A stretch of 32,000 nt of DNA, from NCBI RefSeq assembly GCF_008000775.2, contig NZ_CP042905.2, forward strand, positions 90,001 through 122,000, in the 5' to 3' direction. Position numbers and translations under genes: made by a program. Shown piece after piece: positions 1 through 18,797 of the stretch (the first letter of the stretch is position 1; each line of letters begins with the position of its first letter). The notes beneath the pieces were generated by a model. That model worked only from the letters and a program-made list of their open reading frames with translations, searched no databases and was not told the DNA's origin. This stretch comes from Promethearchaeum syntrophicum (GTDB lineage: Archaea; Asgardarchaeota; Lokiarchaeia; Sigyniarchaeales; Promethearchaeaceae).

Positions 1-286
1 TTTGATTTTCAATGGTTAAATACTCAAGATTGGTCAAATTTCCGATGTTTTCGGGTAACTTATCGATTCTGTTAAAATTATTTTTTAAGTGTCCTCTAAT
101 ACCTAGTGCAACAATGTTATAATCAACAACTCTATAACTCGCAGGTTTTCCTATGAGATGTTCAAGTTCGATAAGGACTTCTACATTGCTTTTAACCAAT
201 GCTTGCCCGTTGTAGTTCATGAGTTCTTCGGATTGGTTTCGATGAATTTTAAGGACAGCGTTCTTTTCTTTGTTCTCCATTCTCAT
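1..286 (-). CDS. Leucine-rich repeat protein, N-terminal part (gene runs off the left edge of the window)
   Basis: Not in the ORF track. My reverse-strand translation from ATG 286..284 is open down to position 2: MRMENKEKNAVLKIHRNQSEELMNYNGQ...NRIDKLPENIGNLTNLEYLTIENQ. It ends in the same LPENIGNLTxL LRR motif as 1140..2519. The track ORF 158..406 (+) is its antisense shadow. Confidence 0.6.
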   Translation of the reverse strand, partial: MRMENKEKNAVLKIHRNQSEELMNYNGQALVKSNVEVLIELEHLIGKPASYRVVDYNIVALGIRGHLKNNFNRIDKLPENIGNLTNLEYLTIENQ

Positions 287-415
287 TTCACGAATTGGTA
301 TGTATTTTTGGACCTTTTACTTTATCATTATATAATATATGGGATTCGGGTTAAAATATTTAACGGATCGACAATTTATCGTGTGAAAATTGTGCGTCCC
401 AGTTAATCGGATGTT

Positions 416-441
416 TTTACCTTAGGTAACTAAAAGTAAAA
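416..441. repeat. Left arm of a 26-bp inverted repeat (TTTACCTTAGGTAACTAAAAGTAAAA); partner at 1005..1030
   Basis: The reverse complement of 1005..1030 is TTTACCTTAGGTCACTGAAAGTAAAA, matching 24 of 26 positions. Weaker similarity continues towards both divergent LRR gene starts (287..415 versus 1031..1139). Confidence 0.8.
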
Positions 442-503
442 AAAGAACGAAAAAAATAAAAATATCGAAAAAATAAAAAAAATTATAGAAAAAAAAAGAC
501 GGA

Positions 504-797
504 TTATGGTGTATATTCGTGATTGCTGTTTCCTTGAACGAAATTAGTTCCATATTCAGAAATAAATATACTATTTACTGAAAAAAAGTTGCCACCGTTT
601 TCATATTTAGATCCCAAGTGCCCGACCATTAGATAATGGAGCATTGCGTTTACAATGAAAACGCCTGAGAGTATCCTATGTGTCTCAATGTCATAAAGTT
701 CCAAGTTGGATTCATAAGCGTTTTCGTAATAGTACCAGTATCCTTGTGTGTCGGCAACAAATAAGTTGGGGTGAGATGTTAGAATATTGACAGACAT
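504..797 (-). CDS. Hypothetical protein (97 aa from ATG 797; the track starts at GTG 800)
   Basis: Track ORF with non-repetitive composition and no recognisable motif. Its first codons overlap the left end of repeat copy 1. Confidence 0.4.
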   Translation of the reverse strand: MSVNILTSHPNLFVADTQGYWYYYENAYESNLELYDIETHRILSGVFIVNAMLHYLMVGHLGSKYENGGNFFSVNSIFISEYGTNFVQGNSNHEYTP

Positions 798-916
798 CAC
801 ATGAACAGAAACAGATTTGAAGAAATTGTAGGTTTGATATAGATAGGGGTAGTAGAAAGATATTGAAGTAATGTTGGTACGGTTTGTAGAGCAAGGCTTT
901 GTCGTGGGCTTTTAAC
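787..916 (+). repeat. Copy 1 of an unclassified ~130-bp G/T-rich dispersed repeat
   Basis: Aligns by eye with 15912..16042, 18199..18325 and 19298..19426. All four share the invariant core GTAATGTTGGTACGGTTT and end in GTCGTGGGC plus a T-run. Confidence 0.9.
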
Positions 917-1004
917 TTCTTTATTTAATTTAAATATTTATATTGTTAATTTGAGTAATATTTGTTAAATTTTAATTACAGTCTTTTTTCTCTCTACATT
1001 TAAT

Positions 1005-1030
1005 TTTTACTTTCAGTGACCTAAGGTAAA
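1005..1030. repeat. Right arm of the 26-bp inverted repeat (partner 416..441)
   Basis: See 416..441. It lies 110-135 nt upstream of the LRR gene start at 1140, while its partner lies 130-155 nt upstream of the divergent LRR gene start at 286. Confidence 0.8.
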
Positions 1031-1139
1031 TCTTTTTGATCGCCAAATTTTTTAGCAATAAATCGCCGATTCGTTAAATTTAATTACTCAAACTTTATAT
1101 AATATACGGAGACAAAAATTAGTAAATGGGATTCAAGGA

Positions 1140-2519
1140 ATGAAAAAACGCACTAAAAAATCTTCTGTAAAAACAACTAGACATCAAAGAAATCCCGTAA
1201 AATACCCAGGTATAGTAATAAAAAATGGACATTTGACGATTCTCCCCGAGAATATCAAAAATCTGAAATTTCTCGAAATTATGAATTTAAGTAATAAACG
1301 GTTAACATCACTCCCAGAAAATATCGGAGATCTAAGATCTCTAAAAAATTTAGATTTATCAGATAATCAGTTAACAAAACTCCCGGAAAGCATCGGAAAT
1401 CTAACATCTCTAAAAATTTTAGATTTATCAGATAACCAGATAACAAAACTCCCGGAAAGCATCGGAAATCTAACATCTCTAAAAATTTTAGATTTATCAG
1501 ATAACCAGATAACAAAACTCCCAGAAAGCATTGGAAATTTGAAATCACTTGAAAAGTTGAATTTACGAGGTTTTCAGATACCGACACTTCCGTATGAGAT
1601 TGAAAATCTGAAAATATCCGAAATGATAAATTTAAGACACAAATGGTTAATATCGCTCCCAGAAAGCATCGGAAATCTAACATCTCTAAAAAATTTAGAT
1701 TTATCTTATAATCAATTAACCAAACTCCCAGAAAGCATCGGAAACCTGAAATCACTTGAAAAGTTGAATTTATATGCTAATCGAATAAAAACACTACCGG
1801 AAAGTATTGGAAATCTATCTTCTCTAAGAGATTTAAATTTATCACTCTTATTTTTTAATTCACTACCGAAAAGCTTAGGAAATTTGAAATTACTCGAAAA
1901 TTTGGAATTATCATCTAATGTATTACCTTTTCTTCCAGAGGAGATCGGAAATCTAACATCTTTACAAAGTTTAGATTTAACATCTAATCAGTTAACAACC
2001 CTCCCAGAGAGTTTCGGTAATCTAACATCATTACAAAATTTAAATTTAATATTTAATCATATAATATCTCTCCCGGAAAGTATTGGAAATCTTAATTCGC
2101 TCCAAAATATGAATTTAGGGGTAAATAAGTTGACTTCTCTCCCGGAAAGTATTGGAAATCTGAAATCACTTAAAAAATTGGAATTAGCAGAAAATAGGTT
2201 GACTTCTCTCCCAGAAAGTATTGGAAATCTTGGATCTCTAACCTATCTTGGATTATCACAAAATCAACTCACTTCACTCCCAGAAAGCATTGGAAATCTA
2301 ACATCTCTAGATTATATTGTATTATCACAGAATCAACTGACTTTACTCCCGGAAAGCATTGGCAATCTAACATCTCTAAATTATTTTGAATTATCCCAAA
2401 ATCAACTAACTTCACTCCCAGAAAGCATTGGCAATCTAACATCTCTAAAAATTTTGGATTTAAACAATAATCAGTTAAATTTTCTTCCTGAAAGTATAGT
2501 TAAATTTGAAGCGCTCTAA
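1140..2519 (+). CDS. Leucine-rich repeat protein (about 18 repeats of 23 residues, LPESIGNLxSLxxLxLSxNQLTx); ends at an in-frame TAA and continues in 2520..2912
   Basis: The translation is almost entirely LPESIGNLTSLKxLDLSxNQ(L/I)TxLPESIGNL units. A TATA-like TTTATATAATA lies about 40 nt upstream of the ATG. Confidence 0.9.
   Translation: MKKRTKKSSVKTTRHQRNPVKYPGIVIKNGHLTILPENIKNLKFLEIMNLSNKRLTSLPENIGDLRSLKNLDLSDNQLTKLPESIGNLTSLKILDLSDNQITKLPESIGNLTSLKILDLSDNQITKLPESIGNLKSLEKLNLRGFQIPTLPYEIENLKISEMINLRHKWLISLPESIGNLTSLKNLDLSYNQLTKLPESIGNLKSLEKLNLYANRIKTLPESIGNLSSLRDLNLSLLFFNSLPKSLGNLKLLENLELSSNVLPFLPEEIGNLTSLQSLDLTSNQLTTLPESFGNLTSLQNLNLIFNHIISLPESIGNLNSLQNMNLGVNKLTSLPESIGNLKSLKKLELAENRLTSLPESIGNLGSLTYLGLSQNQLTSLPESIGNLTSLDYIVLSQNQLTLLPESIGNLTSLNYFELSQNQLTSLPESIGNLTSLKILDLNNNQLNFLPESIVKFEAL
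1377..1514 (+). repeat. Perfect 2 x 69-bp tandem duplication inside the LRR gene (one LRR unit duplicated)
   Basis: AAACTCCCGGAAAGCATCGGAAATCTAACATCTCTAAAAATTTTAGATTTATCAGATAACCAGATAACA occurs twice back to back (1377..1445 and 1446..1514). The next unit diverges. Confidence 0.9.
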
Positions 2520-2597
2520 TATTTATATTTATCAAAAAATCAGATAACTTCTCTACCGAATAGATTCAATAATCTAAGAATACTCAAAAAACTTAGT

Positions 2598-2912
2598 TTG
2601 GAAGAAAATCCAATAGAAACATTATCAAACATATCCATAGATGCTTTGAAATATATTAAAATTTCCGCAGGGTGTTTAACGAAGAAAGGAGGATATTTAT
2701 ATCAACACAGTATATTTGGGAAATTAGCTGAATATTATAAAAAAACTTGTAAATCACTAGCACTACAATATATTTCAGACCCAAAATCTCTTACAGAAGA
2801 TGAACTGGAGAGATTAATTCATGAATCAGGCAGATATGAAGAAATACTTTTTGAAAGTCGATTATCTCTTGAAGATCCGATATTCGTAAAAATAAGGAAA
2901 CGGATTTTTTGA
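2598..2912 (+). CDS. C-terminal remainder of the LRR protein (same frame as 1140..2519; non-LRR tail)
   Basis: 2520..2597 is open in the same frame and still encodes an LRR unit (YLYLSKNQITSLPNRFNNLRILKKLSLEENPIETL). The track start at 2598 is a TTG inside that unit. Confidence 0.6.
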   Translation: MEENPIETLSNISIDALKYIKISAGCLTKKGGYLYQHSIFGKLAEYYKKTCKSLALQYISDPKSLTEDELERLIHESGRYEEILFESRLSLEDPIFVKIRKRIF

Positions 2913-3200
2913 GAACTTTCCTGTGGATTGAAGATATGCTTTTAATTTTTTATATCAAATGTCATTTTATTTTTAACCTACTAAGTGGTTAGTTGGTTTA
3001 AAATAACTTATAATAATAACAAAATTCCTTCCTTAGAGATCAGTTTTTGAATTAGTGAAAAATAGTAGTTAGTTAAATTCTATAAAAAATCTAATAAAAA
3101 TATTTGAAATATGTATAGCCCCCAACTGAAAATTTAACTTCAACAAGAGAAAAAAATATCATCTGTCTTTTTAAGTGAGAAAAAATAAAAATTCATTGTA

Positions 3201-3734
3201 ATGGGATCGTACTGTCCAATTTGCGACAAAAATTTCAAACGTGATGGATATGCCAAAAGTGTTTCGCATATAGAAAGTCAGGCACATCAAACGGCACTCC
3301 TAAAAAGTAGAAGAACTGGAAAAAGTGAAAATACGCAAATAATATCTCAAAGCTCGACAAAACCTTTTCAGAAAAACAAGATTGCACTTTTTGGGAAAAC
3401 TCAAGATTCTACGAATTTAGAAAAGCGAGTTAAAGAATTGGAAAAACAAGTGGAATTTTTGCTAACAAAATATAGGATTATTGTTAAGAAACTTTCAAAA
3501 AATAATCAGTATGTCAATATGGATAAGCTTAAAGCAAAAATCTACAAAATTATCTCCAATAAAAGGCATATAACCTCTGATCAGCTTCTAGAAAACCGAC
3601 ATCTCAATAATTATTCATTTGAATCAATTGAAGAAGCAGTGCTTGAATTATCAGCTGATGCTATTATTGATTTAGGTGAAGGACCGTCAAAACGCAAATT
3701 CAAAAATCAATATGGTTTAATGGTTCTCCGATGA
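3201..3734 (+). CDS. C2H2 zinc-finger protein with coiled-coil middle and possible winged-helix C-terminus
   Basis: N-terminus CPICDKNFKRDGYAKSVSHIESQAH has the spacing C-x2-C-x14-H-x5-H. The segment LEKRVKELEKQVEFLL looks like coiled coil. The gene ends 45 nt before the next co-directional gene. Confidence 0.6.
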   Translation: MGSYCPICDKNFKRDGYAKSVSHIESQAHQTALLKSRRTGKSENTQIISQSSTKPFQKNKIALFGKTQDSTNLEKRVKELEKQVEFLLTKYRIIVKKLSKNNQYVNMDKLKAKIYKIISNKRHITSDQLLENRHLNNYSFESIEEAVLELSADAIIDLGEGPSKRKFKNQYGLMVLR

Positions 3735-3778
3735 TCCCTTGATCTTACTAAATCTTGTGTAAATGGTGTGTTATATAA

Positions 3779-6328
3779 ATGATTCGTGTATTAAACAATA
3801 ATAAATATAGAGAAGCACTTAGATATTTTAGAAAATTTACACAAAGCCCTTTTATAAGCAGTTCCTATTACGATGGGTATAAATTTGAAGATTTTGTTGG
3901 TCGTGGAGAGGAACTGGATCTTTTCAAGCAAAGAATTTTTGAAATTGTCGATAAAGGAACCAGTTATGCCATTAGATTAAATGGATTTGGTGGAGTTGGA
4001 AAATCGACTCTATTTAACTATCTTAAAAAACGAATAGAAGATGAAAGAGCGAATAATCCCAAAATTTGCGAGTTTCTGGGGCCATCTCATAACATTTTTT
4101 CTCTTTATTTTAAAGATATCGGAAAAATCTCCGATTTTGGGGATATTTTCCGAAAAATTCAAAATGCTTTCGCTCCTCATTTTGATGCAGAATTAGGTCA
4201 TGAAATTTCATTTGTTGAATATGTAGCCTATTGCATGGTGTTTGCTTTAGTAAAAAAGTATCCTGAAAAAATAGTTCATCGTATTTTTGGGAAAAAAAGA
4301 ACAGTTTTCAATCCGTCTACTATAAAATTACCTGATTTAATAGAAAAAATAAAAAATTTAGAAGAAAAATACATTTTGGAGATATCTGAAATTGTAAACG
4401 AGAATGTTAAAGAAATTATTAATGATTTTAAATATCAAACTAATTCCAAATCTTATAAAATAAACAGAAGAGATTTACCTTTATTACGAGGTCTTAGTCA
4501 AATATTTTCATATAATAATGATTATTATGATAAAGTGATGAGGTGTGATCCTTCCCTCTTTCGCTCAGACAATGAAATAATTGATTATTTTAATTCATTA
4601 TTAAGACTTTACAGTTGTTTCACACAACGTCAACCTATTCTTTTAATAGGAATGGATGAATTTGCCAAGTCACCTGAGATAGAAAAAAGAATTTATTATA
4701 AATCATTAGCAAAACTATTAGTAAAACTCCGGAATAGCTTGGATTACACGCTTTTTGTCTTTATCTCAACAAAAAAAGATTGGAACTCATTTGATCAAGA
4801 ATTACTAGAAGATACAGACCTACTAAGCCAAATTTCTGCATATATGGAAGAAATATCTCTAGTTTCCTTAGAAACTGATGAATTAATTAAAGTTTTTGAA
4901 AAAAGAATGGACCTCTACTGGAAAAAAGGTAGACATAATCGGCCAATAAAATATCCATCGTATCCCTTTTCAAAGGAGTTATTCCGATATGTTTATTTTC
5001 TACATGAACGTGATATGCGGGAATCAATAAAATTTTTAGATAGATTATGGCGAAAATTACAAAGATCTCCAGATATACCTGATTTCCATAATCTTTATGA
5101 TGTTCTTAGATTTGCACGTAGCTCTAAATTCTCCGGACTTGAACTTTCGAAGATCGAGGCGTTTGAACTTAAACTTGTAGGAGATTTTTTTAGTAAATCA
5201 CAAATTTATGCTAATAATAAAAAAAGATCTTCCATCGTGGAGGAAGGTTTAACCCAAGCATTTTTATCACTTAAAACTAAAACTTTTTTTGATGAATTAA
5301 GTTTTGTTCATAATAATTACACTTTTTATATTCAATCTAAAGATGGAACGCAACATAGAAGACTACCTGATGTCCTTTTGACCTTTAATGAAGATATGGG
5401 ACCATCTATGAAACGTTATGTTGAAATTCAAGTAAAGGTATATACTCCTGAAAAACATGTAGAGTTGGATCATATTGAGTCTTCAATAGATTTACTTTCC
5501 AACGGTTGTACGGATGCAGTTCTATTTTTAATGACTGGAGCAGGTTTTAGTCATAAAGCAAAAGAAGCGATTGAGGAACACTTAAAGATTTTTCCAAACA
5601 GAATCAAAATATTTATTGTGTCAACAGAGAGGATAAATGTATTATATTTTCTAGCTTTATTTAATGAAATATATGGAAAGAACTTTCAAGATTATGAAAA
5701 CGGTTCTGAAATTGCTTTATTTCTGCTTGAAAAAATTTTTAGATGTGATATTTCTGATTTATTTCAAGAATTATTGGCACTCCCTCCTTGGGAAATACCG
5801 GTTGATTCTGATCATAAAACAGAGAACTATCGTCCTCCACCCACATTAGCAGAATCACCACCTATTATTCCAAAAATAAGAAAATCTCCAGAATCTTTAC
5901 AGAAAACACCAGTTCAGATTAATTCTTATTTTAGTTCAAATTCTGCTTCTGGTTCAAATCTTAGTCAAGAAGTCACTGATGAGGAAAAAAATGAAATTGA
6001 TACCCAATCTCCTGAAGAAGCTAAATTATCAGAATTTCCGTTCCATTGGCAGAAATTACCTCTTCTTGATTATGTTGACTATCAAGGTGAGCTTATAGCT
6101 CTAGTGGATTATGCTTGGAACCGTCGTCCTAGTTCTCTTTATAAATTTACGAAAACTACCTTTCGAAAAAACTTCTTGAACGATAATGCAGCACTAGGTG
6201 TGAATGAATTTAATGAACTAGTTGATAGGATGATGAGAACAGGTTATTTAAAAAAGGAAAAAACTACATATATCTTTACTCCCGAGGGAAAATTGTTTGT
6301 TCGAGATATAGTAGCAAATCTAGGTTGA
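3779..6328 (+). CDS. Large P-loop NTPase (AAA+/STAND-like) fused to an Mrr-like PD-(D/E)xK nuclease domain, a low-complexity linker and a C-terminal wHTH
   Basis: FVGRGEEL...GFGGVGKSTLF is the Walker A region and ILLIGMDEF the Walker B. HERDMRESIKFLDRLW resembles the Orc/Cdc6 sensor-2 region. RLPDVLL...YVEIQVKVY...AVLFLMTGAGFSHKAKEAIEE fits the Mrr catalytic pattern (D ... Q/ExK ... TTG.F...A). A P/S/E-rich linker follows, then YLKKEKTTYIFTPEGKLFV, a wHTH-like tail. Confidence 0.7.
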   Translation: MIRVLNNNKYREALRYFRKFTQSPFISSSYYDGYKFEDFVGRGEELDLFKQRIFEIVDKGTSYAIRLNGFGGVGKSTLFNYLKKRIEDERANNPKICEFLGPSHNIFSLYFKDIGKISDFGDIFRKIQNAFAPHFDAELGHEISFVEYVAYCMVFALVKKYPEKIVHRIFGKKRTVFNPSTIKLPDLIEKIKNLEEKYILEISEIVNENVKEIINDFKYQTNSKSYKINRRDLPLLRGLSQIFSYNNDYYDKVMRCDPSLFRSDNEIIDYFNSLLRLYSCFTQRQPILLIGMDEFAKSPEIEKRIYYKSLAKLLVKLRNSLDYTLFVFISTKKDWNSFDQELLEDTDLLSQISAYMEEISLVSLETDELIKVFEKRMDLYWKKGRHNRPIKYPSYPFSKELFRYVYFLHERDMRESIKFLDRLWRKLQRSPDIPDFHNLYDVLRFARSSKFSGLELSKIEAFELKLVGDFFSKSQIYANNKKRSSIVEEGLTQAFLSLKTKTFFDELSFVHNNYTFYIQSKDGTQHRRLPDVLLTFNEDMGPSMKRYVEIQVKVYTPEKHVELDHIESSIDLLSNGCTDAVLFLMTGAGFSHKAKEAIEEHLKIFPNRIKIFIVSTERINVLYFLALFNEIYGKNFQDYENGSEIALFLLEKIFRCDISDLFQELLALPPWEIPVDSDHKTENYRPPPTLAESPPIIPKIRKSPESLQKTPVQINSYFSSNSASGSNLSQEVTDEEKNEIDTQSPEEAKLSEFPFHWQKLPLLDYVDYQGELIALVDYAWNRRPSSLYKFTKTTFRKNFLNDNAALGVNEFNELVDRMMRTGYLKKEKTTYIFTPEGKLFVRDIVANLG

Positions 6329-6926
6329 TTATTCACCAACTTTGATATAATAATAGGGATAGATTCGTTGATCTGGATTAGAATTATATTTATCATTTTC
6401 AGGAGTCACTTTTGTTCACACATAAAAAACCCGTATATTCTTTTCACATTTCCAGTAAATATCAGGATATGAGCATAATTCGAGTTTCATGATTAACTGA
6501 TGCAAATTGTTCAATTAAAATTAATTATTAAAATATGAAATTGAAAACAAAGAAATCATGAAATCTCAGCTTCGACAAAAATTTAAATTTCCCCTACTTT
6601 CAAATCGAAGCTATTAAATAATCTAACAAAAGCACTTCATTACTTAAATGAATTCAATCCTCTCCATGAGATCAGAATTCTCTCTTTTTTGTCGTAATAT
6701 ATAAATATCCTTTGAGAGACTTTTTTCAATAATTATTTTTATTGGAATCTCAAAAAAATATTTAATTAATTCAGTTTTTACCTAAATTCTAAAAAATTAT
6801 TAACCAAAAGCTAGCAAGCAATTCGCAAAATTTAAATGCTTAAAAATGATATTCAAAATAATTTTGTAAGAAAAATATAAAAAAAGATATTTTATACAAG
6901 AAAGCAGTTATGAGGAGATAAAAATA

Positions 6927-9143
6927 GTGCAAAAAACTCTAATACCATTAAATGTTTCAAATGAACCTTTGAATTTCTACATCAGCCAAGTAAAAAAACC
7001 TTCAATTAGACCCAGACAAATTTTCAAAGCAGATGAAAAGAAAAAAATTAATAAAATCTCTCAAAAAATTATTCAAAGCTGTAAAACTTCTCCTCTCTCA
7101 AATCTAAGAATGCAAACAAACCGTGTAACTTGGATTAAAAAAATTTTTAAAATATATCCAAAATTAAAAATACCTGAAATTAATTATCTCTTAAATGATT
7201 TTTCTCAACCCATGTTTACAGCAATGAGAAAAAAAGACAGGTATAATATACTAATTTCTAAAAAGAATTGGGTAATATTATGTCATACTCTTCAAGGAGA
7301 AAAAACGATAACACCTAATATAAAAACTGTTGATAGATTAATGGATGTTGACAATATTAGAAAGGTTATTGCATTTGAAAATGCAAAAAGTGGAATTATT
7401 GTTCATTATGTAGAGGATTTTCCAACCAAATTTATCACTGATTATTTAGGTTTATCAGATTCAAAAACATTTTCCTATCTTGGTGGGAAAAACCGTATAG
7501 TGACCAATGTCCATGGAATCTCGATTTCTTTTAATTTTACTGATGAAAAATTTATTGACTTCCTACAAGAAGAAGAAATTTTTTCTTTTAAAAACAATAA
7601 GTTATGTTTTAAAAATCCAATAACCCAATTCCCGATTACTAATATATGGGTAGGGAAAAAACATTTTTCCAAATTCAACAATTTCTATCAAGATTTTAAA
7701 ACTAGAAACTTAGAATTACAGTTTTATATTTCAGAGTATAAAAAAATTTCAAGAATGTTAGAATTACCCAATTACCCAATATATGACGATAAGGATTGTA
7801 TATTAAGAAATGATAAAAAATTATTAGAAAAATCAAATTCTGACTTCGACATTATATTTTGTAATCAAAAAATATTATTAAGAGCCAGTTATTGTGAATT
7901 TATTGTTGAAAAGATCGATAATCACGAAAAAATCAAATTATTCCATGCTGGAACAAAACTCTCAATTGAACCATTAAAAATTGGCACAATTGAAATATAT
8001 AACTCATTTAGAACAACAAAATCACTGGAATTAATCCAAATCTTTAATAAGGGTTTTACTTCAGATTCATTTGAATTGATTCTTTTTGCAATTTTTACTC
8101 TAATGGCACATGAAAATTATAGGAGACCAATCAGTTATTTATTTATAGATTTGGCAAAAAATTTAATCCAAAAAGAAAATTTTCAAAAAAATTTCTCAAA
8201 AATATTTGATTTCGAAACTCCGTATCCAAAATTGAGTAAGATTTATAGAGAAATGTTACAATTAGATATAGGTTCTAATATTCGAGATTTATTTCCTAAA
8301 ATAGAAATTAATGAAAATCTTGAATTTATTGACCAAGATGATTATAATTATTTAAAGAATAAGTTTAAAGGATGTATAAGAAAAGCTCAAATAAATAAAT
8401 GGTTAAATAATTTCCAATTAGAAGAAATTCCTTATATGTTAAAACTTCTAAAACAATTTACTATAATTAACAATCAGGAATTAAAGGAAAGACTTGAAAA
8501 AATACATAAAAAAATGTTAGAAACTTGTAGTGGTTCTTTAAAAGATACAATTTTCTTCAATTTTGGAGAAGAAGGTAAAAGTGCTAATCTAATTCAATAT
8601 CATTATAGTAAATCGAATTCTATTCCTAATTCAATAAATTTTATTGACATTACAAAAATTACGGATTTTGATATTTATGATGGTAAAAACTTCTTCTATG
8701 TGGATGATATTTTAGGTTCGGGTGATCAGTTTATAAAAAATTGGAATAAATTTGAAAATAAACTCAAATCTTCAACAGAAAAACAAGAATTTGAGAAATT
8801 TCTATTAAAAAACTCATTTTATTATTCATCAATAATTATTCAAGAAGAAGCTAAAAAGAAAATTGAAGAAGATACGCCTTTTAAAACAATTATAACTAAA
8901 GAAAATTTATTAAAAAAGCAAGATATCCCCTTTGAAAATCTCGATGGACTATTTTCTAAAGAAGAAGTGTCAGAAATTTTAAATATAAGCACAAAGTATG
9001 GAAAGAAATTAAATAAAACTGCTCCTTTGGGATATGGTAACTTAAAATTATTAATTGCTTTTGAACATAATTTTCCAAATAACACACTTCCTATATTTTG
9101 GATGAAGAATTCTTATTGGAAACCATTAATAGAACGAAATTAA
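6927..9143 (+). CDS. Large uncharacterised protein with a phosphoribosyltransferase (PRTase)-like C-terminal region
   Basis: GTG start 8 nt after GGAGA. FFYVDDILGSGDQF (nt 8691..8729) resembles the PRPP-binding loop VDD(I/V)xxTGxT. The tail is PLGYGNLKLLIAFEHNFPNNTLPIFW...WKPLIERN. I recognise nothing in the N-terminal ~500 aa. Confidence 0.45.
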   Translation: MQKTLIPLNVSNEPLNFYISQVKKPSIRPRQIFKADEKKKINKISQKIIQSCKTSPLSNLRMQTNRVTWIKKIFKIYPKLKIPEINYLLNDFSQPMFTAMRKKDRYNILISKKNWVILCHTLQGEKTITPNIKTVDRLMDVDNIRKVIAFENAKSGIIVHYVEDFPTKFITDYLGLSDSKTFSYLGGKNRIVTNVHGISISFNFTDEKFIDFLQEEEIFSFKNNKLCFKNPITQFPITNIWVGKKHFSKFNNFYQDFKTRNLELQFYISEYKKISRMLELPNYPIYDDKDCILRNDKKLLEKSNSDFDIIFCNQKILLRASYCEFIVEKIDNHEKIKLFHAGTKLSIEPLKIGTIEIYNSFRTTKSLELIQIFNKGFTSDSFELILFAIFTLMAHENYRRPISYLFIDLAKNLIQKENFQKNFSKIFDFETPYPKLSKIYREMLQLDIGSNIRDLFPKIEINENLEFIDQDDYNYLKNKFKGCIRKAQINKWLNNFQLEEIPYMLKLLKQFTIINNQELKERLEKIHKKMLETCSGSLKDTIFFNFGEEGKSANLIQYHYSKSNSIPNSINFIDITKITDFDIYDGKNFFYVDDILGSGDQFIKNWNKFENKLKSSTEKQEFEKFLLKNSFYYSSIIIQEEAKKKIEEDTPFKTIITKENLLKKQDIPFENLDGLFSKEEVSEILNISTKYGKKLNKTAPLGYGNLKLLIAFEHNFPNNTLPIFWMKNSYWKPLIERN

Positions 9144-9437
9144 ACATGATTTATCAAATAACTTTCCTTACTTCTTCGGTTCGTAATCTCTGTAAATCCT
9201 CCGTTTCTGGTATTAATTGACATTCACACTATGAAATTTTGCAGGGAAGTTTAAGTTACAAAAATAAATAAATAATTTTATTTTAAAATCTTGATCCATA
9301 TTGTTTTAGATCTCATTAATTGATCAATTTTAATCAAAAGAAACCACAAAAAGATTCATAATATCAAGTTGAAGAAAAATTGTAGCCGATTATAAAACAA
9401 TCAGACATTTTTAATATGTAAGAATCCTTCTTTCTTT

Positions 9438-10625
9438 ATGGGTCAAAAAGAAGAAATTTATCGCTGGATGAACTTTAAACCTTGTACAATTAAAGAAATT
9501 CATCAAAAATTTTCTCAGTATTCGGAAGCGCATGTCACGCAATTAGTAACACGTTTGGTTCAAGAAGGAAAGCTTAAAAAAGTCGATAATAACGGGAAAA
9601 AAGCACAATATCAAAAAGATAACAGCGTGAAATATGAATTTTATCCTCCCGATGGAAAATCAGAGGTTTATACTGATTTTCATATTGATTCTCAAGCGAT
9701 TACTATGGCCGGCCAGATGTTAGAGAGACAAATATATAAGTTTTTTTCAAAAAAGAAAATGAAATCATGTTATCTTGGTCAAATCAGTGTATTTAGACAA
9801 TTTGGAGAAGAAACTGAAATTGAACAGATTGAGTACAAGGCTTTAGAAATTATCAAATCCCTTTTTGAAGTATCGAAAATGCCTGCAATATCTCTACTTG
9901 TTGAAGAAACAAACGATAGTTCTTTAGATGATTATTATTTTACAAAATTTAGTAATATTTTCTGGTGTAAACAAGGTGCAAACTTTTATCTGACTCGGTT
10001 TGTTCCTAGCATATCATTAGCAACAAATAAAATAGGTTTAGGACCTTTATCTTATGAAGAAGAAAGTAAATCAAAATTTGAGTTTTATACTCCTGAAGAA
10101 TTGAAAAAATATCGAAAAGAAAAAGATGAATTTGAAGAAAAACTAAAAAATTCAAAACCGTCTGAACTGTTATTTAATATTTTTCATTCAGAAATTACCC
10201 CAGAATATCAAAAACATTATAAAATTTTAAGAGATGGAGAATATTGGTATTTTTCCCCATTTAAAGGATTGAAAATTATTGGAAAAGAGATTAGAGTCAT
10301 AGGATATAATCCTAATGATGCAGCATTGTCACGAAGGTATGAAGCAATTTTCTTTGATATTTTCAAATTAGAAAAAATTCCCGGAGATAACTTATTACGA
10401 ATCATTAAGGATCATAAATATCATAAAATCTATGCATTTTATAGTTCCCTTCTAACAGATTTTATTTGGAAAGGATTTCAAATTTCTCCAAAAGAACTGG
10501 ATGAAATGCAAGAAAATAAGAATTATCTCAATTTAATTCTTAAGAAGTACTCCTTACCCGATTACTCGACCATCACAATTGATATAGAACAATATGAGAA
10601 ATGCACTCAATGGGAAGATTACTGA
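9438..10625 (+). CDS. Hypothetical protein with N-terminal winged-helix DNA-binding-like domain
   Basis: N-terminus EEIYRWMNFKPCTIKEIHQKFSQYSEAHVTQLVTRLVQEGKLKKV has a wHTH pattern. The rest has no motif I recognise. Confidence 0.45.
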   Translation: MGQKEEIYRWMNFKPCTIKEIHQKFSQYSEAHVTQLVTRLVQEGKLKKVDNNGKKAQYQKDNSVKYEFYPPDGKSEVYTDFHIDSQAITMAGQMLERQIYKFFSKKKMKSCYLGQISVFRQFGEETEIEQIEYKALEIIKSLFEVSKMPAISLLVEETNDSSLDDYYFTKFSNIFWCKQGANFYLTRFVPSISLATNKIGLGPLSYEEESKSKFEFYTPEELKKYRKEKDEFEEKLKNSKPSELLFNIFHSEITPEYQKHYKILRDGEYWYFSPFKGLKIIGKEIRVIGYNPNDAALSRRYEAIFFDIFKLEKIPGDNLLRIIKDHKYHKIYAFYSSLLTDFIWKGFQISPKELDEMQENKNYLNLILKKYSLPDYSTITIDIEQYEKCTQWEDY

Positions 10626-10678
10626 AGTCATTGAATTGGGTAATTATGAGACACTATTAACTGAAAAGAATCCAGAAT

Positions 10679-12208
10679 CTATGGTTTAAGTTTTTTTTTA
10701 TGGTTTTTCTTAGGTTTCTTTTTTGATCTCTTTTTCTTCTTCTTCTGTTTATTATATGATTTTTTCTTTGATCTTTTTACTTTTATATCTTGAAGAATGT
10801 ATTTTATATGATCAATGATAGCATTTAGTTTAAGAATCTCCTGATCCGAGAATTTAGAAGATGATTTAGGATCATTTAGTAATAGAATCAATTTACTTAA
10901 AATCAATAGTGTGGACATATCGATCACAGGGAGGTTGAAGGATTTAAGGGCTTTAATTTGGTGAAATTTATAACCTTCACTGCCTGTAGATTGACGATAA
11001 TGCCCGAATGTAAAACGGTCTTGATCAAAACGTGCAGAGTTTATACTTTTATGCTTATATCTTTGGTTAATTTGGCTGTTAAGGAGGTTTAATCTAAATT
11101 GAACTCCATCATATTTCAAAAAAATAATTAATGGAGATTTATTTTCTTTTACCAAATCATGTAATTTTTTTGTCGGAAACATCTTATTGGATAAGTTATT
11201 TGATTTTAAGACTAATTGTCCTATTGGTAATGGTCCAAGAAGAAGTAATTTCTCAATGATTATATTCCGATTTTTCTGGTTTATTTTTGTATTTGATGCT
11301 AATAGATTCAATAATTCAACTTCTATTTCCGCAAAGTCTATCATTGTTTTATCGATTTGGGAAAGTTTTATATAATTTGTGGGTAATTTAGTTGCCAACT
11401 TTGGTATCCCATTAGTTTGGACAAATTCAAAAAATTCATTAAATCTAGAAAATTCAATCCTTTCTAATTGATACTGTATAATTTTATTTTTATAATTGTT
11501 TGTGAATTGTTTTTTATTGGATCCGACTATTCCTTTAGCTGGTAAAGAAAGAATTTGCTTTAATCTATTCAATCTTACATAGGTTTTCCTAATAGGATTG
11601 TATTGAGATTGTAGGCGATGTTTCATCTCAAGCATTTCAATATGATCAGTATATATTAGTAAAAAATCATATTCACTAAGCATAAATCCTGAACGATTCA
11701 CTACAATCTCACCTTTTTTTCCTCGAGTTAATCCTTCTTGAGCGCGAGGTTCCTTTTGAATCTCTTGAGGGCAAGAATAACCTTTACATTCTGGGATCTT
11801 TGTATTAATTTGGCTTAAAATCCAATTTGAATAAGCTTCAAAATAATAACCCCGTAAACTTCCCTTAATAAGTTGTATTGGGATATTTTTTGGTTGGTTT
11901 TTTGTTCTTTGGATTATAATCTTATTATATAATTGAATAGAAGAAAAATCCAAGTTGGCTTCAAATTCATCAATTAACGTTTGAAGAATATTCTCTTTAT
12001 GATTCATATTATTAGTCATTTTATCACCGATTTTGTAGTATTTCATAAAAATATTAAGCCATATCTGACCGTACCCACTAAAATCAAGAGGATTGGCAAT
12101 GGATGATAGAGGGATCCCGTTTAGGATTACCTTATTCCCGTCTACCTCAGACATGTGTTGCTCGGTGATAATGGAAATACAATTCTGAAATATTACTGCA
12201 ATAGACAC
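10679..12208 (-). CDS. Hypothetical protein with a central PD-(D/E)xK (Hjc/NERD-like) nuclease motif and a C-terminal poly-lysine tail
   Basis: GKKGEIVVNRSGFMLSEYDFLLIYTDHIEMLEMKH fits E ... D ... ExK. The C-terminus is KRSKKKSYNKQKKKKKRSKKKPKKNHKKKLKP. Confidence 0.45.
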   Translation of the reverse strand: MSIAVIFQNCISIITEQHMSEVDGNKVILNGIPLSSIANPLDFSGYGQIWLNIFMKYYKIGDKMTNNMNHKENILQTLIDEFEANLDFSSIQLYNKIIIQRTKNQPKNIPIQLIKGSLRGYYFEAYSNWILSQINTKIPECKGYSCPQEIQKEPRAQEGLTRGKKGEIVVNRSGFMLSEYDFLLIYTDHIEMLEMKHRLQSQYNPIRKTYVRLNRLKQILSLPAKGIVGSNKKQFTNNYKNKIIQYQLERIEFSRFNEFFEFVQTNGIPKLATKLPTNYIKLSQIDKTMIDFAEIEVELLNLLASNTKINQKNRNIIIEKLLLLGPLPIGQLVLKSNNLSNKMFPTKKLHDLVKENKSPLIIFLKYDGVQFRLNLLNSQINQRYKHKSINSARFDQDRFTFGHYRQSTGSEGYKFHQIKALKSFNLPVIDMSTLLILSKLILLLNDPKSSSKFSDQEILKLNAIIDHIKYILQDIKVKRSKKKSYNKQKKKKKRSKKKPKKNHKKKLKP

Positions 12209-12382
12209 AATTCAATTATTTAAGTTTTTGTAATATTATAAGCAAAAATGATTTGAGGTTTCAAAAACGGAGAATTTAATTTACATTTAGAAGCAATCGA
12301 AGAAAGGGAAAGAATATAATTTTTTTTACTAATTCGTCGATCTATATAGAGTTATAAGGGAGAAACGAATAGAATAAAATAT

Positions 12383-12901
12383 ATGCTTGATCGCAAATTA
12401 TATAGGATTATAATTGACACGTTAGGGAAGGCGCATTTTGAGTATTATCCCGACAATTTTTCCAAGCGAATTTTAGTTCAAAAAGTATTATATCTGCTTA
12501 CTCATGGAAAGGCAAATCCAAAATTACATCTAGCTTATAAGTGGAGTTTTTATTTACATGGGCCATATTCTTCCGAAATAGCTCACATGGTATATTATAT
12601 GAATGATTTCTCAGCATCATTGTTAGATGAAACTCAAGATATTCTGGATAAGCAAGAAATCGAAGCAATTAACCATTTTAAGGAATTTGATAAGGAAACT
12701 ACCCCTTTTCTTGATAAACTCTCGAAAGAGGATTTATATGAAATGTTTGCAACAATTACATACATATCTGAGCAAGTTGACTATAATAAAACAAGTATCG
12801 AACAGAAATTTGGAATTTTTAAACCAGAGCTTAGAGAGAAAATTAATATGGAAGATTTTGATGCGATATTAGAAACAATGACAGAGTTCAATTATATATA
12901 A
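12383..12901 (+). CDS. Panacea/SocA-like (DUF4065-like) domain protein
   Basis: RILVQKVLYLLTHG...LAYKWSFYLHGPYSSEIAHMVY resembles the DUF4065 signature (KLxYL ... f.aW.hGPv...vY). It sits directly upstream of the HD hydrolase gene. Confidence 0.4.
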   Translation: MLDRKLYRIIIDTLGKAHFEYYPDNFSKRILVQKVLYLLTHGKANPKLHLAYKWSFYLHGPYSSEIAHMVYYMNDFSASLLDETQDILDKQEIEAINHFKEFDKETTPFLDKLSKEDLYEMFATITYISEQVDYNKTSIEQKFGIFKPELREKINMEDFDAILETMTEFNYI

Positions 12902-12991
12902 AAATGATAATAATTGAAAGAATTTCGAATTAGGAAGAAATACAATACATGTTATTTATTTAAAGTAAGAAAATTCGGTATATTATTAAAA

Positions 12992-14398
12992 ATGAGAACT
13001 TTAACAGGGCTACAAGCAAAAAAGTACATTCTTGATCCAATTCATAAAGTTATTTCATTAACGCAGATAGAACTTGATATAATTTCAACTCCTTTATTTC
13101 AAAGATTGCGAAAAATTACTCAATTGGGTGTAGCATCATTGGTGTATCCTGGTGCAACTCATAACAGATTTCAACACTGTCTTGGTACTTTACATGTTAC
13201 GGATAAACTATTATATTCGCTTGAGCTTCAAAAAGAATACGAATTATCTGATAAAGATCATAAACGAATAGTTCAATTTATGCGCCTTGCAGCGTTACTC
13301 CATGATTGTGGACATTTACCTTTTTCCCATACATTTGAAAATTTATATGAGAATTTTACTCATGAAGATATTGGAAAGCATGTAATAGAAAAAAGTTCGA
13401 TTGGAGAGATATTAATAAAACATGGTTTTAATCCAAACGACTTAGGTTTGTTTATAACAGGGCAACCTCCAGTTAAAGATAAGAATTTCAATATATTAAC
13501 ACACTTGTTACCACTTTTACATTCTGAAGCAGATGCTGATCGAATGGATTATCTTTTACGAGATGCATATTTTACGGGTGTTCCTTATGGGAAAATTGAT
13601 ATCGATAGGATATGCAATTTTGTAACTTTACATGAAAAAAGAATATGTTTTTCAGAAAAAGCCCAAGATGCGCTTGAAGATTTTTTATATTCGAGATATC
13701 AGATGTATAAAATAGTCTATATTCATAAAACATCACTTTGTTATGATTTAATTCTTCATAAAATCTATGAAAATTATTTAAAAAAGTCAAAAATCAAATT
13801 CTTTGACTCTTTCAAACTCCCTACAAAGAAAGAATTTGAAAAAAAGAATAAAGAATGGTATGAAACAGATTTCTACGAGTTATCAGAAGCCTCCTTCTAT
13901 GAAACTATTCAATACCTTTTAAAATCTAAAGGAAAAAGTCTTACCGATACAGAGAAAGTAGAGCTAAAATATTTATATAATACGATTAAGAAGCGAAAAC
14001 CGATTAAAAATTGTTATAATCATGATTTATTAGCAACAGTCCCAGAAGATATTAAGAAAAAAGGGGAAATATGTGAAAAAGAAAATCAACTTTTTGAAAA
14101 TTTACAGAAAAAATCGAAGATTACTAATCATTGGTCATTTCTACGACATGATCCAGGAAAACCCATAAGAATTTCTCCCCCAATTAATCAAATAATTGAT
14201 GATGATCAAGATTCAAAATCAATTCGGATTTTAAAGGATATTAATGGTAAAAAGGAAATTGTTTTACTCCAAAAAAAACAGAATTCTTTCATCAAAAATT
14301 TAGCCACTCATCATAGGGTTCTTATCAGTTATTATCATAATGACAAAAAAGCCCAAGAAGAAATTCAAAAACAAGCATGCGAAATGTTTGGGTCATAA
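12992..14398 (+). CDS. SAMHD1-type HD-domain phosphohydrolase (COG1078-like, putative dNTP triphosphohydrolase)
   Basis: HNRFQHCLGTLHV (H..H), AALLHDCGHLPFSH (HD) and HSEADADRMDYLLRD (D) are the family motifs. The track ORF starts at TTG 12914. ATG 12992 (MRTLTGLQAKKYILDPIH) looks the likelier start. Confidence 0.85.
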   Translation: MRTLTGLQAKKYILDPIHKVISLTQIELDIISTPLFQRLRKITQLGVASLVYPGATHNRFQHCLGTLHVTDKLLYSLELQKEYELSDKDHKRIVQFMRLAALLHDCGHLPFSHTFENLYENFTHEDIGKHVIEKSSIGEILIKHGFNPNDLGLFITGQPPVKDKNFNILTHLLPLLHSEADADRMDYLLRDAYFTGVPYGKIDIDRICNFVTLHEKRICFSEKAQDALEDFLYSRYQMYKIVYIHKTSLCYDLILHKIYENYLKKSKIKFFDSFKLPTKKEFEKKNKEWYETDFYELSEASFYETIQYLLKSKGKSLTDTEKVELKYLYNTIKKRKPIKNCYNHDLLATVPEDIKKKGEICEKENQLFENLQKKSKITNHWSFLRHDPGKPIRISPPINQIIDDDQDSKSIRILKDINGKKEIVLLQKKQNSFIKNLATHHRVLISYYHNDKKAQEEIQKQACEMFGS

Positions 14399-14452
14399 AA
14401 TTAAATGTGTAATCAAAAATCCTTTAAAAAAGCAAATTACATGTTTAACACT

Positions 14453-15577
14453 TTAATACTCCTTATGACTCATTTTTTTCAGATTTTCTTTCCAAAGCGG
14501 TTTTTCTTTCTTGATAAAGTATCCTATATCCACCATAACCAGAAGGATTAGAATACAAATAATGCTCCAGAGAAGGATATTAGATATTTCTTCTTTTGGA
14601 CTCAAAGGATCGATAATCACTAAACCATCATGAAAATCTAATATGTATACATATGACCCCGAAACAAAAACTCCAACTACATGTCCATCATCATAGAATT
14701 GTCCCACTTTCACCGGAGCGACTGGGTCTGAAATGTCAATAACCTCTAAACCTCTAAGACGCTCCGCCACGTATGCATATGACCCCGAAACATAAACTTC
14801 TACCGCACATCCACCATCATCGAATTGTCCCACTTTTGCAGGTGCGGTCGGGTCTGAAATATCAATAATCTTTAAACCATCGCAACTACCACCCACCACG
14901 TACGCATATGACCCCGAAACAAAAACATCCTCCGCAAGTCTACCATCATTAAATTGTCCCACTTCCACTGGAGTAGTCGGGTCTGAAATGTCAATAATCC
15001 TTAAACCACCGGAACCTTCCACTACGTACAAATATGAACCTGAAACATAATATTCTAATAAACAACCCCATTCAGATGTGCAATAAGTAAATAGACCTAC
15101 TTTTATGGGAGCTGCTGGGTCTGAAATATCAATAATCTCTAATCCATCATCACTATCTTCCACGTATGCATAGGACTCCGAAACAAAAACATCGACCGCA
15201 TATCCACCATCATCCAATTGTCCCACTTTAGTGGGGGTGGTCGGGTCTGAAATATCAATAATCCTTAACCCATGCCCACCATCTGCCACATAAGCATACG
15301 ATCCCGAAACAAATACTTCGTATGCCGTTCCAGCATCATCGAATTGTCCCACTTGTGTGGGGGCGATCGGGTTTGAAATGTCAAAAATCTTTAACCCATC
15401 ATCACCAGCTGCTACGTATAAATATTCCCCCGATATATAAATATCATCTTCATTTTCAATATTATCGAATTTTACGATAATGCTAAAATTATGACTAAGA
15501 AGCATACTTGCTCCGATAATAAGTGCAACTAACCCCGCGAATATTACAGCCAATAACTGATTTTTCTTGAACTTCAT
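14453..15577 (-). CDS. LVIVD-repeat beta-propeller surface protein with N-terminal signal/TM and C-terminal TM anchor
   Basis: About eight repeats of GSYAYVADGGHGLRIIDISDPTTPxKVGQxDD. It has an N-terminal hydrophobic segment and a C-terminal LLWSIICILILLVMV helix. It is visibly more G+C-rich than its neighbours. Confidence 0.85.
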   Translation of the reverse strand: MKFKKNQLLAVIFAGLVALIIGASMLLSHNFSIIVKFDNIENEDDIYISGEYLYVAAGDDGLKIFDISNPIAPTQVGQFDDAGTAYEVFVSGSYAYVADGGHGLRIIDISDPTTPTKVGQLDDGGYAVDVFVSESYAYVEDSDDGLEIIDISDPAAPIKVGLFTYCTSEWGCLLEYYVSGSYLYVVEGSGGLRIIDISDPTTPVEVGQFNDGRLAEDVFVSGSYAYVVGGSCDGLKIIDISDPTAPAKVGQFDDGGCAVEVYVSGSYAYVAERLRGLEVIDISDPVAPVKVGQFYDDGHVVGVFVSGSYVYILDFHDGLVIIDPLSPKEEISNILLWSIICILILLVMVDIGYFIKKEKPLWKENLKKMSHKEY

Positions 15578-15911
15578 TTATAGATACCTCTTGTTATTAT
15601 GCTCAGAGTGAGAATTGCAGTAGTGATGAATATGAATTTGCAGGTTTTTAGTTTTGTATATATTTTTTAATTTTATCTCCTTTGAATTTTGAATATCACA
15701 TTTTGACATATCAATATTCTATCCATATAGAATGAATATTTAACATTTTTGTTTTTGCAACAACTATAAATTTTCCGAATTCTATGGGAAGATAAGATAT
15801 ATTTAGTGTGATAAATTGTTCGCTAAATTATTTAAAATAAATAAAGAGCAAAAGATCTGAGAGTATGCGGTGGTTAGGATTAAGTGGCTAGGGTAAGGTG
15901 TTAGGATATAA

Positions 15912-16042
15912 AAGATATCACATGAACAGAACAGAAGTGAAGAAATGGTAGGTTTGATATAGGTATAGGGAGGGATAGTAAAATGATATTGAAGTAATGT
16001 TGGTACGGTTTGCAGGGCAAGGCTTTGTCGTAGGCTTTTTCC
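15912..16042 (+). repeat. Copy 2 of the ~130-bp G/T-rich repeat (carries a ~6-nt internal insertion)
   Basis: ATCACATGAACAGAACAGAAGTGAAGAAATGGTAGGTTTGATAT...GTAATGTTGGTACGGTTTGCAGGGCAAGGCTTTGTCGTAGGCTTTTT. About 40 nt upstream also resembles the sequence upstream of copy 1. Confidence 0.9.
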
Positions 16043-18769: not shown

Positions 18770-18797
18770 ATTGACCAAATTCATTTGAAGGATTATC

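Follow-up and report, generated by a model that had tools for sequence, protein, structure and literature searches.

McrBC and the CoCoNuT type IV restriction systems possess an AAA+ motor together with a PD-(D/E)xK nuclease, and some of them also have coiled-coil partners (PMC11090510). Similarly, Avs proteins of the STAND class join a P-loop nucleoside triphosphatase (NTPase) to an Mrr-like nuclease. In archaea, a family described in PMC4158269 carries AAA+, helix-turn-helix (HTH), and PD-(D/E)xK nuclease domains in one protein, and that source also lists Orc/Cdc6-related ATPases as virus-associated in archaeal dark-matter islands. Here, we analyze two adjacent genes, DSAG12_00609 (gene 1) and DSAG12_00610 (gene 2), of the Asgard archaeon Promethearchaeum syntrophicum MK-D1. 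The genes lie in a 32,000-nucleotide stretch of DNA (contig NZ_CP042905.2, positions 90,001 to 122,000; the window), whose numbering is used throughout. An initial annotation, made from the letters of this stretch, proposed that they constitute a candidate defense system. We see an even chance that the pair is a two-gene nucleic-acid conflict (immune) module, consisting of a predicted ATP-gated nuclease, encoded by gene 2, and a putative coiled-coil adaptor, encoded by gene 1.

Both open reading frames (ORFs) are located where the initial annotation put them, gene 1 at 3201-3734 (177 amino acids) and gene 2 at 3779-6328 (849 amino acids), each 100% identical to a database protein. They share the + strand, which is the strand of every feature of the pair given below. 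Their common direction and close spacing were described correctly, but the spacer is 44 nt long rather than 45 nt. The entire pair occupies a compact 3.1 kb within an AT-rich window (GC ~30%), and every motif that had been quoted is present in the sequence at the expected position. Comparison to the 86%-identical orthologue shows both genes to be under purifying selection, with ratios of nonsynonymous to synonymous substitution rates (dN/dS) of 0.22 for gene 1 and 0.23 for gene 2. Values of 0.47-0.70 are confined to linkers, and the zinc finger of gene 1 has a value of 0.13. A word-indexed search of 5.8 billion proteins retrieved 31 full-length relatives of gene 2 (802-864 amino acids) from Promethearchaeota and Harpocratesius, one at 86% identity and 30 at 31-35%. 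Their alignment, A1, is the basis of all statements about invariance in gene 2. Because motifs are invariant across these 31 homologues and both genes are under purifying selection, the features of the pair are not products of chance.

The proposal that the two genes form a module was to stand or fall with their adjacency in other genomes. All 18 of the 18 loci with complete genes have a small co-directional gene directly upstream of the gene 2 homologue, at a distance of 6-94 nt. In the first set of loci, taken from one complete genome, metagenome-assembled genomes, and metagenome contigs, the partner is a co-directional ORF of 166-205 amino acids that ends 12-113 nt upstream, and the same arrangement exists at three more main-family loci and at four loci of distant homologues, including Helarchaeota. 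Pairwise identities of the partners correlate with those of the ATPase-nucleases across the 18 loci (Mantel r 0.94, reached by 0 of 2000 permutations). This correlation indicates that gene 1 and gene 2 are co-inherited, and it is consistent with a physical partnership. An exhaustive hidden Markov model search with A1 of 1.84 billion cluster representatives delivered 115 proteins at E up to 1e-3, 48 of them at E up to 1e-30. The named relatives stem from Promethearchaeota, Helarchaeota, or marine-sediment metagenomes, and all named taxa are Asgard. At the closely related locus L015 (87% identical), nucleotide similarity to the window is confined to 3133-6856, except for a short unrelated match at 764-925. 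None of the ORFs outside the pair in window positions 1-16000 recurs in the flanks of other loci, save for a leucine-rich-repeat (LRR) match between the protein encoded at 1140-2519 and one L015 ORF. Regarding a third component, nothing downstream is common to the loci beyond close relatives, no small conserved ORFs were found, and 2500-7200 contains no Rfam match. Judged from these sequences, the pair is a conserved, self-contained unit of Loki-type Asgard archaea, and its few relatives are in keeping with the behavior of accessory genes.

Evidence for a nuclease in gene 2 comes from a domain model, fold comparison, and motifs, which together delimit residues 474-672 (5198-5794) as a PD-(D/E)xK domain of the Mrr/MspJI kind. 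A separate AlphaFold2 model of these residues, with a predicted local distance difference test (pLDDT) score of 91.4 and a predicted template modeling (TM) score, pTM, of 0.89, displays the alpha-beta-beta-beta-alpha-beta core of the PD-(D/E)xK superfamily (helix 480-498; strands 525-528, 532-536, and 546-553; helix 567-574; strand 580-585). When the domain is compared to the PDB using Foldseek, AF1548 (1y88), MspJI, and AspBHI rank on top (Foldseek probability 0.99-1.0), and the Avs3 nuclease, FokI, LlaBIII, EndoMS, and EcoT38I are among the further matches. The superfamily motif, an acidic strand-2 residue plus (D/E/Q)xK in strand 3, is likewise present. Specifically, the catalytic core (5369-5437) consists of D531 (5369-5371), just ahead of strand 2, and E549-I-Q551-V-K553 (5423-5437), with E549, Q551, and K553 inside strand 3, which is canonical geometry in the models. 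The core is invariant in the 31 sequences, as are E488 in helix 1 (5240-5242) and R483, S484, R528-x-P530-D531, and T586-G587. The motifs PDVLL, EIQVK, and LFLMTGAG correspond to residues 530-534, 549-553, and 582-589. Glutamine occupies the middle catalytic position (Q551) in the main branch (PD...ExQVK), whereas glutamate takes its place in distant branches (PD...xIEVK). This alternation, a classic PD-(D/E/Q)xK swap, provides independent evolutionary evidence for the catalytic position. The agreement of fold and motif supports the nuclease assignment, and the models show an intact restriction-type catalytic center from which metal-dependent phosphodiester cleavage is predicted. Thus, the Mrr-like nuclease that the initial annotation had located at 5230-5620 corresponds to a restriction-endonuclease fold, and the outcome it had named as contrary, a characterized non-defense family with no nuclease fold in that region, does not describe gene 2.

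The likeness to Mrr exists at the level of the fold only. In sequence, Pfam Mrr_cat_2 scores 19.8 bits against gene 2 (cut-off 22; E 7.9e-4), below membership, and it matches 4 of 31 family members at E up to 0.1. Searches for sequence links to the PDB using gene 2 alone, the family profile, and the nuclease-domain profile gave chance-level matches only. In sequence space the family stands alone, and only fold comparison is informative. Mrr, MspJI, and AspBHI, of types IV and IIM, and AF1548 share the PD-(D/E)xK fold with gene 2, and its D...(Q/E)xK motif has glutamine at the middle position, as Mrr and MspJI do. In contrast to Mrr, MspJI, and AspBHI, gene 2 has no SRA-like or other modified-base reader domain, and its nuclease has an AAA+ module on one side and a tethered winged helix on the other.

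The second catalytic part of gene 2 is an ATPase. The AlphaFold2 model of the full protein, built on A1, has a mean pLDDT of 78.6 and is disordered only at residues 1-4 and in a linker at 675-759. Pfam AAA_16, whole-chain Foldseek matches, and the secondary structure of the model define an AAA+ module at residues 39-450 (3893-5128). The module begins with the lead-in FVGRGEEL (residues 39-46). Walker A, GFGGVGKST (residues 69-77; 3983-4009), has G69, G72, V73, G74, K75, S76, and T77 invariant, and Walker B, LLIGMDEF (residues 288-295; 4640-4663), has I290, G291, and D293 invariant. The residue following D293 is E in most homologues and D in a few, and both Walker motifs persist in distant branches. 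The model places a helical insertion of ~190 residues between Walker A and Walker B. The sensor-1 strand, FVFISTT, is invariant. The Orc/Cdc6-like motif RDMRESIKFL pointed out in the initial annotation is found at residues 411-420 (5009-5038), with R411, R414, and I417 invariant; it opens the third lid helix of the model (413-429) in the manner of a sensor-2 motif, and we take it to resemble the GDARxAI motif of Cdc6/Orc1. R318 and R376 are the other invariant arginines of the ATPase part. Gene 2 therefore presents the features that define an AAA+ protein, namely Walker A, Walker B, a sensor-1 strand, and a lid of helices that carries a sensor-2 arginine.

Fold and sequence comparisons assign this ATPase to a different group than was first suggested. 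Whole-chain Foldseek against the PDB matches BrxC of BREX, ORC and Cdc6 subunits, RdrA, and Clp ATPases, and it matches the C-terminal part to MspJI. AAA_16 has Pfam matches in 31 of 31 members (best E 2.5e-7) and ATPase_2 in 4 of 31; for gene 2 alone, AAA_16 is sub-threshold (E 3.6e-4), and weak winged-helix models appear as well. NCBIfam Orc1/Cdc6 (TIGR02928) reaches 16.8 bits against a cut-off of 181.3 and covers only residues 33-92. Weak Pfam matches to NB-ARC, NACHT, and nSTAND5 occur in 2-5 of 31 members, at E 0.009 or weaker for NB-ARC and NACHT. The NB-ARC/STAND-like P-loop of the initial annotation is thus replaced by an ORC/Cdc6- and BrxC-like module by fold and an AAA_16/ATPase_2 module by sequence; nothing specific to NB-ARC or STAND was found. 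Nor does gene 2 have the NBD-HD-WHD-plus-sensor architecture of STAND proteins: it has no repeat sensor, and its lid is followed by the nuclease, the disordered linker, and a winged helix. The models show that the P-loop AAA+ module of gene 2 is intact and that its fold is ORC/BrxC-like. Gene 2 shares with ORC/Cdc6 and BrxC the FVGRxxEL lead-in, Walker A and B, an RDxRxxI lid, and a C-terminal winged helix. It differs from them in the ~190-residue insertion and in the nuclease and 85-residue linker that precede the winged helix; no box VII arginine is evident, and no BREX genes lie nearby.

The remainder of gene 2 likewise agrees with its initial description. The P/S/E-rich linker occupies residues 675-759 (5801-6055); its 85 residues have pLDDT <50 and dN/dS of 0.70, and neither its length nor its sequence is conserved in A1. 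The wHTH-like (winged HTH) tail is a winged helix at residues 760-849 (6056-6325), with three helices and a beta hairpin in the model. Of the 31 members, 29 match Pfam HTH_45 (best E 9.5e-7), and NCBIfam Sso10a_fam matches with E 0.007. Homology of this domain to the wHTH-like domain of gene 1 was considered and rejected (profile-profile probability 0.2%).

Gene 1 is far less recognizable. As a query on its own, it found only two close relatives, and the partner-family alignment, A2, was gathered from the loci of gene 2 homologues. All that the partners have in common is the coiled coil and the C-terminal domain; the N-terminus is not conserved. The short coiled coil spans residues 73-100 (LEKRVKELEKQVEFLLTKY; 3417-3500), downstream of the finger as first noted, and it contains a conserved LEKQVKF motif in A2. 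In a comparison of the partner-family profile to the PDB, the coiled coil matches GCN4-type zippers (E 8e-6 to 1e-3). The C-terminal domain (residues 107-177; 3519-3731) is the best-conserved part of the partner. Its ~70 residues include invariant D127, L150, and S163 and terminate in the motif ...DVSEGxSKxKIxGxIGRIIRR. A helix-helix-helix-hairpin pattern and weak matches to PCI, MCM5_C, and DUF6432 in a few members suggest that this domain is a winged helix.

The initial annotation described gene 1 as a C2H2 zinc-finger protein, with a finger spacing of the U1/matrin-like type that is unusual in prokaryotes. The finger, C-x2-C-x14-H-x5-H, can be read from the sequence at residues 5-29 (C5, C8, H23, and H29; 3213-3287). 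Its ligands are retained with identical spacing in relatives of 82-84% identity and in the 28%-identical orthologue at locus L011. Given this conservation and the dN/dS of 0.13, the finger is real. With respect to class, the C-x2-C ... H-x5-H ligand pattern is that of the U1/matrin/JAZ fingers, but the spacer is x14, and the Pfam models remain sub-threshold (zf-C2H2_jaz 14.5 bits, cut-off 22.6; zf-met 14.2 bits, cut-off 21.2; E 0.04-0.06). Fingers of the U1/JAZ class usually have an x12 spacer. The finger is not the hallmark of the partner: most orthologues have a SAP/HeH domain instead, and some have a basic tail. Specifically, the x14 finger is present in the window, in its close relatives, and in L011, and a different finger, C-x2-C-x10-H-x5-H, is present in the partner at L020, which belongs to a distant branch, so that C2H2 heads occur in two separate branches of the partner family. 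The SAP/HeH domain is not present in gene 1 of the window; SAP exceeds its Pfam cut-off in the L005 partner (25.4 bits versus 23.9), Rho_N exceeds its own in the L018 partner (28.6 bits versus 24.9), and 5-6 of 15 partners match sub-threshold in the same region. Lysine-rich basic tails form the N-termini of the L009 and L021 partners. The zinc finger is, by these comparisons, one of several interchangeable nucleic-acid-binding heads.

These features suggest how the pair could operate as an immune module. The ORC/Cdc6-like AAA+ module of gene 2 would bind and hydrolyze ATP and may oligomerize on DNA. The winged helix, on its long flexible tether, would hold the DNA, and the Mrr/MspJI-type PD-(E/Q)xK domain would cut it, with DNA as the presumed substrate. 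By analogy to nucleases that must pair to cut both strands, ATP-driven assembly could bring nuclease domains together and produce double-strand breaks, in which case cleavage would depend on ATP. Gene 1 would serve as an oligomeric coiled-coil adaptor, a dimer or trimer, tethered to nucleic acid. Its exchangeable head, whether SAP/HeH domain, C2H2 finger, or basic tail, would bind nucleic acid without sequence specificity, and its C-terminal domain could contact gene 2 or DNA and thereby load, direct, or restrain the nuclease. No methyltransferase accompanies the pair at any locus, and thus the pair would act in the fashion of type IV restriction or abortive infection, not of classical restriction-modification. 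Discrimination of self from non-self would accordingly follow the type IV or abortive-infection mode, or it could occur through the reading of DNA by gene 1. In sum, gene 2 and its partner make a candidate ATP-gated DNA-cleaving conflict system, for which a role in defense is plausible. More tentatively, we entertain the idea of an undescribed, Asgard-specific immune system in which an adaptor of chromatin style would mark or scan DNA and give an ORC-like ATPase license to assemble and to fire its fused Mrr-type nuclease. The adaptor in that speculative scheme would be a coiled coil equipped interchangeably with a SAP/HeH domain, a U1/matrin-like C2H2 finger, or a histone-tail-like basic arm.

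Viewed against the systems introduced at the outset, the pair shares a logic with McrBC and CoCoNuT: an NTP-driven AAA+ component, a restriction-fold nuclease, a coiled-coil component, and no methyltransferase. Unlike those systems, gene 2 fuses motor and nuclease, and its ATPase is ORC-like rather than McrB-like, with no AAA_5 or McrB match among the best 25 of 29 Pfam families for gene 2 members. In contrast to CoCoNuT, the coiled coil of gene 1 is not extensive (~28 residues), and the pair is restricted to Asgard archaea. Avs proteins resemble gene 2 in joining a P-loop NTPase to an Mrr-like nuclease, and the Avs3 nuclease is among the fold matches of gene 2. However, the order in gene 2 is reversed, with an N-terminal NTPase and a C-terminal nuclease. 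Gene 2 lacks TPRs or any other repeat sensor, its lid has an AAA+-type sensor-2 arginine, and a required partner comes from a separate gene. The family described in PMC4158269 unites AAA+, HTH, and PD-(D/E)xK domains and has the same predicted role as gene 2. Compared by description, its domain order appears different, as the nuclease precedes the HTH domain in gene 2, and no obligatory coiled-coil partner is described for the family (PMC4158269). ATPase_2, moreover, is found in only the 4 of 31 gene 2 members given above, and neither DUF234 nor DUF4143 is among the best 25 of 29 Pfam families. By analogy, then, the pair would work like the broad NTPase-plus-PD-(D/E)xK class, but it is not a demonstrable member of McrBC, CoCoNuT, or Avs. 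Distinctive are the ORC-like ATPase with its insertion, the order of ATPase, nuclease, tether, and winged helix, the obligatory adaptor with exchangeable heads, and the restriction to Loki-type Asgard archaea. Our search of the literature found nothing on the DSAG12_00609/00610 locus tags or on this domain combination.

Two non-coding stretches accompany the pair. The upstream stretch, 3133-3200 (+), marks the start of DNA similarity to L015 and travels with the module, and flanks farther away are unrelated; it is probably the promoter region. On the 3' side, 6329-6856 (528 nt, no strand assigned) is co-inherited with the pair and is 77% identical to L015. With dS at ~0.3, this identity is about the neutral level. 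The stretch contains neither an ORF nor an Rfam match and is not conserved at other loci, and no function was detected in it.

In the window, the neighbors of the pair include a PRTase-CE effector protein and a pair of DarG-C-like and HD genes. The PRTase-CE protein (6927-9143, +; 738 amino acids) matches Pfam (1.5e-46) and PADLOC PRTase_III-A (3.3e-48) with its C-terminal 250 residues, and its 470-residue N-terminus matches nothing. Pfam scans of the ORFs that neighbor it gave no match to a reverse transcriptase gene, and it is probably an independent conflict-system effector beside the pair. At 12383-12901 (+), a 172-amino-acid protein resembles the C-terminal part of the DarG antitoxin (PADLOC 3.7e-7, NCBIfam 1.6e-5). 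After 13 nt comes a protein with HD and HD_assoc_2 domains that is weakly similar to dGTPases (12914-14398, +), and the two may form a toxin-antitoxin pair or a defense pair that depletes deoxynucleoside triphosphates. A small DUF6290-like protein of the ribbon-helix-helix type and an adjacent 163-amino-acid ORF (18437-19289, +) have the look of a toxin-antitoxin pair. A Fic/DOC protein is encoded at 19576-20469 (-; 2.2e-18). With the latter two additions, the wider window is rich in addiction-type and conflict-type genes. Other neighbors differ in character. Immediately 5' of the module, 1140-2519 (+) encodes 459 amino acids consisting almost wholly of near-identical 23-residue LRRs (LRR_8, 1.5e-74); L015 has a giant protein of 6557 amino acids at this position. 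A secreted or membrane-anchored beta-propeller with seven LVIVD repeats (3.7e-75) lies at 14453-15577 (-), in a stretch that is locally richer in GC (34% versus ~29%).

Conflict genes also flank the pair elsewhere. Neighbors are ThsB-TIR and TIR_2 at L002; SNF2, HNH, DUF6884, and ThiF-JAB at L001; HEPN and nucleotidyltransferase genes (HEPN/MNT) at L003; PIN-MazE and NERD-UvrD (PADLOC C3a187) at L016; and a HerA-like ATPase at L020. Directly downstream of the Helarchaeota homologue at L018, 8464-11091 (+) encodes an 876-amino-acid PHP plus AAA_15/23 protein that matches PADLOC Ppl over its full length (E 2.3e-57). In total, 111 neighboring ORFs at 17 loci include seven that encode UvrD-type helicases, four that carry NERD, six that carry topoisomerase-type zinc ribbons, and three that encode small RNase H proteins. 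All of these vary in position and strand, and none of them is present in the window. UvrD-type superfamily 1 helicases lie at most 6 kb from the pair in about one-third of loci (L002 12874-15534, L007 3115-4884, L008 8481-10433, L010 3417-5186, L016 9450-11402, and L019 10488-12290), several of them fused to NERD or topoisomerase-type zinc ribbons. They may represent either an accessory with loose linkage to the pair or just one more defense gene. A UvrD/NERD helicase as a fixed third gene was rejected, as side and strand vary and the window has none. Several Promethearchaeota loci also have stand-alone proteins of at least four Zn_ribbon_Top1-type C4 ribbons (L003 618-1292, L010 2337-3017, L012 130-840, and L007 1919-2965), and a 145-amino-acid RNase_H/RVT_3 protein occurs near the pair at three loci from two independent lineages (L003 1339-1773, L008 10892-11344, and L016 11861-12301). 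By a raw tally of loci, the context is suggestive of defense at about half of them. Such variable flanks, often with conflict genes, fit an accessory module that frequently, though not invariably, ends up in defense islands.

Several observations weigh against an immune module. The pair matches no named system of PADLOC 2.0.0, in which neither protein finds a family at E up to 0.1, in line with the initial annotation, which could not assign the pair either. The TM-scores of the nuclease-domain Foldseek matches are modest (0.34-0.44). No invariant R or K exists in A1 between residues 332 and 360, where a box VII arginine finger was sought, and because A1 reveals no canonical one, ATP-driven oligomerization is uncertain. 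Nothing that could distinguish self from non-self is evident in the pair, and methyltransferases are absent from all loci examined. At L005, L009, and part of L007, the pair is surrounded by ordinary genes of metabolism or for surface proteins, among them those for NosD/beta-helix proteins, an epimerase, a hydrolase, and a LOG-like protein. Finally, gene 1 is small, lies upstream, and has a wHTH-like end, and it could be just a transcriptional regulator, akin to the small wHTH regulators upstream of many defense operons. Gene 2 alone would then be the effector, for defense or as a toxin, and gene 1 merely its repressor or antitoxin, bound to the promoter of the operon rather than to target DNA. 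The 6-94 nt spacing suggests a single operon, and co-divergence is equally expected of a cognate repressor or antitoxin. Nonetheless, a search upstream found no conserved operator-like repeat, and the exchange of the head among unrelated generic binders while the rest stays constant fits non-specific tethering better than operator recognition. A purely regulatory gene 1 is the main variant of our reading, and we regard it as unlikely.

A role in lineage-specific chromosome maintenance or DNA repair, in which a SAP or finger adaptor would recruit an ORC-like ATPase-nuclease to damaged or stalled DNA, draws on the ORC/Cdc6-like ATPase fold, on SAP and C2H2 modules as typical chromatin or nucleic-acid binders, on the UvrD-type helicases that recur nearby, and on EndoMS/NucS among the nuclease fold matches. 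Purifying selection and the ordinary neighbors at some loci are also in its favor. We nevertheless deem it improbable, as even relatives of 87% identity do not share flanks, the genes are very few given the diversity sampled, the best nuclease matches are restriction enzymes rather than repair nucleases, and defense and toxin-antitoxin genes neighbor the pair at many loci. The virus-associated Orc/Cdc6-related ATPases that PMC4158269 places in archaeal dark-matter islands bring to mind, instead, the maintenance module of an integrated mobile element, with a possible role as an Orc/Cdc6-like replication initiator, as a partition factor, or in addiction or exclusion. The 3.7-kb block is indeed found in differing contexts, and TniB, HNH, and RNase_H/RVT_3 genes lie near some copies. 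Against this, no integrase, tRNA, or flanking repeats were found, and the only repeats at the window locus are AT-rich chance ones. No copy was found on IMG/VR viral contigs, tblastn gave no match in GenBank phages or PLSDB plasmids, and the pair has no PHROG match and no meaningful BFVD fold match. Nothing else is co-inherited with the pair. We judge such an element slightly less probable still than a repair role.

If the pair is a defense system, it would be a lineage-restricted addition to the still thin catalog of Asgard immunity, and an unusual one, in which the partner fused to the restriction-type nuclease is an ORC/Cdc6-like ATPase and not an McrB, ABC, or STAND motor. If it is a repair or chromatin factor instead, it would represent a new ORC-derived nuclease. 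At 3.1 kb, the pair is compact enough to make heterologous testing easy. The repeated exchange of the adaptor's head amounts to a natural experiment on the adaptor's requirements for recognition. With regard to eukaryogenesis, SAP/HeH domains and H-x5-H C2H2 fingers are used interchangeably in Loki-type archaea.

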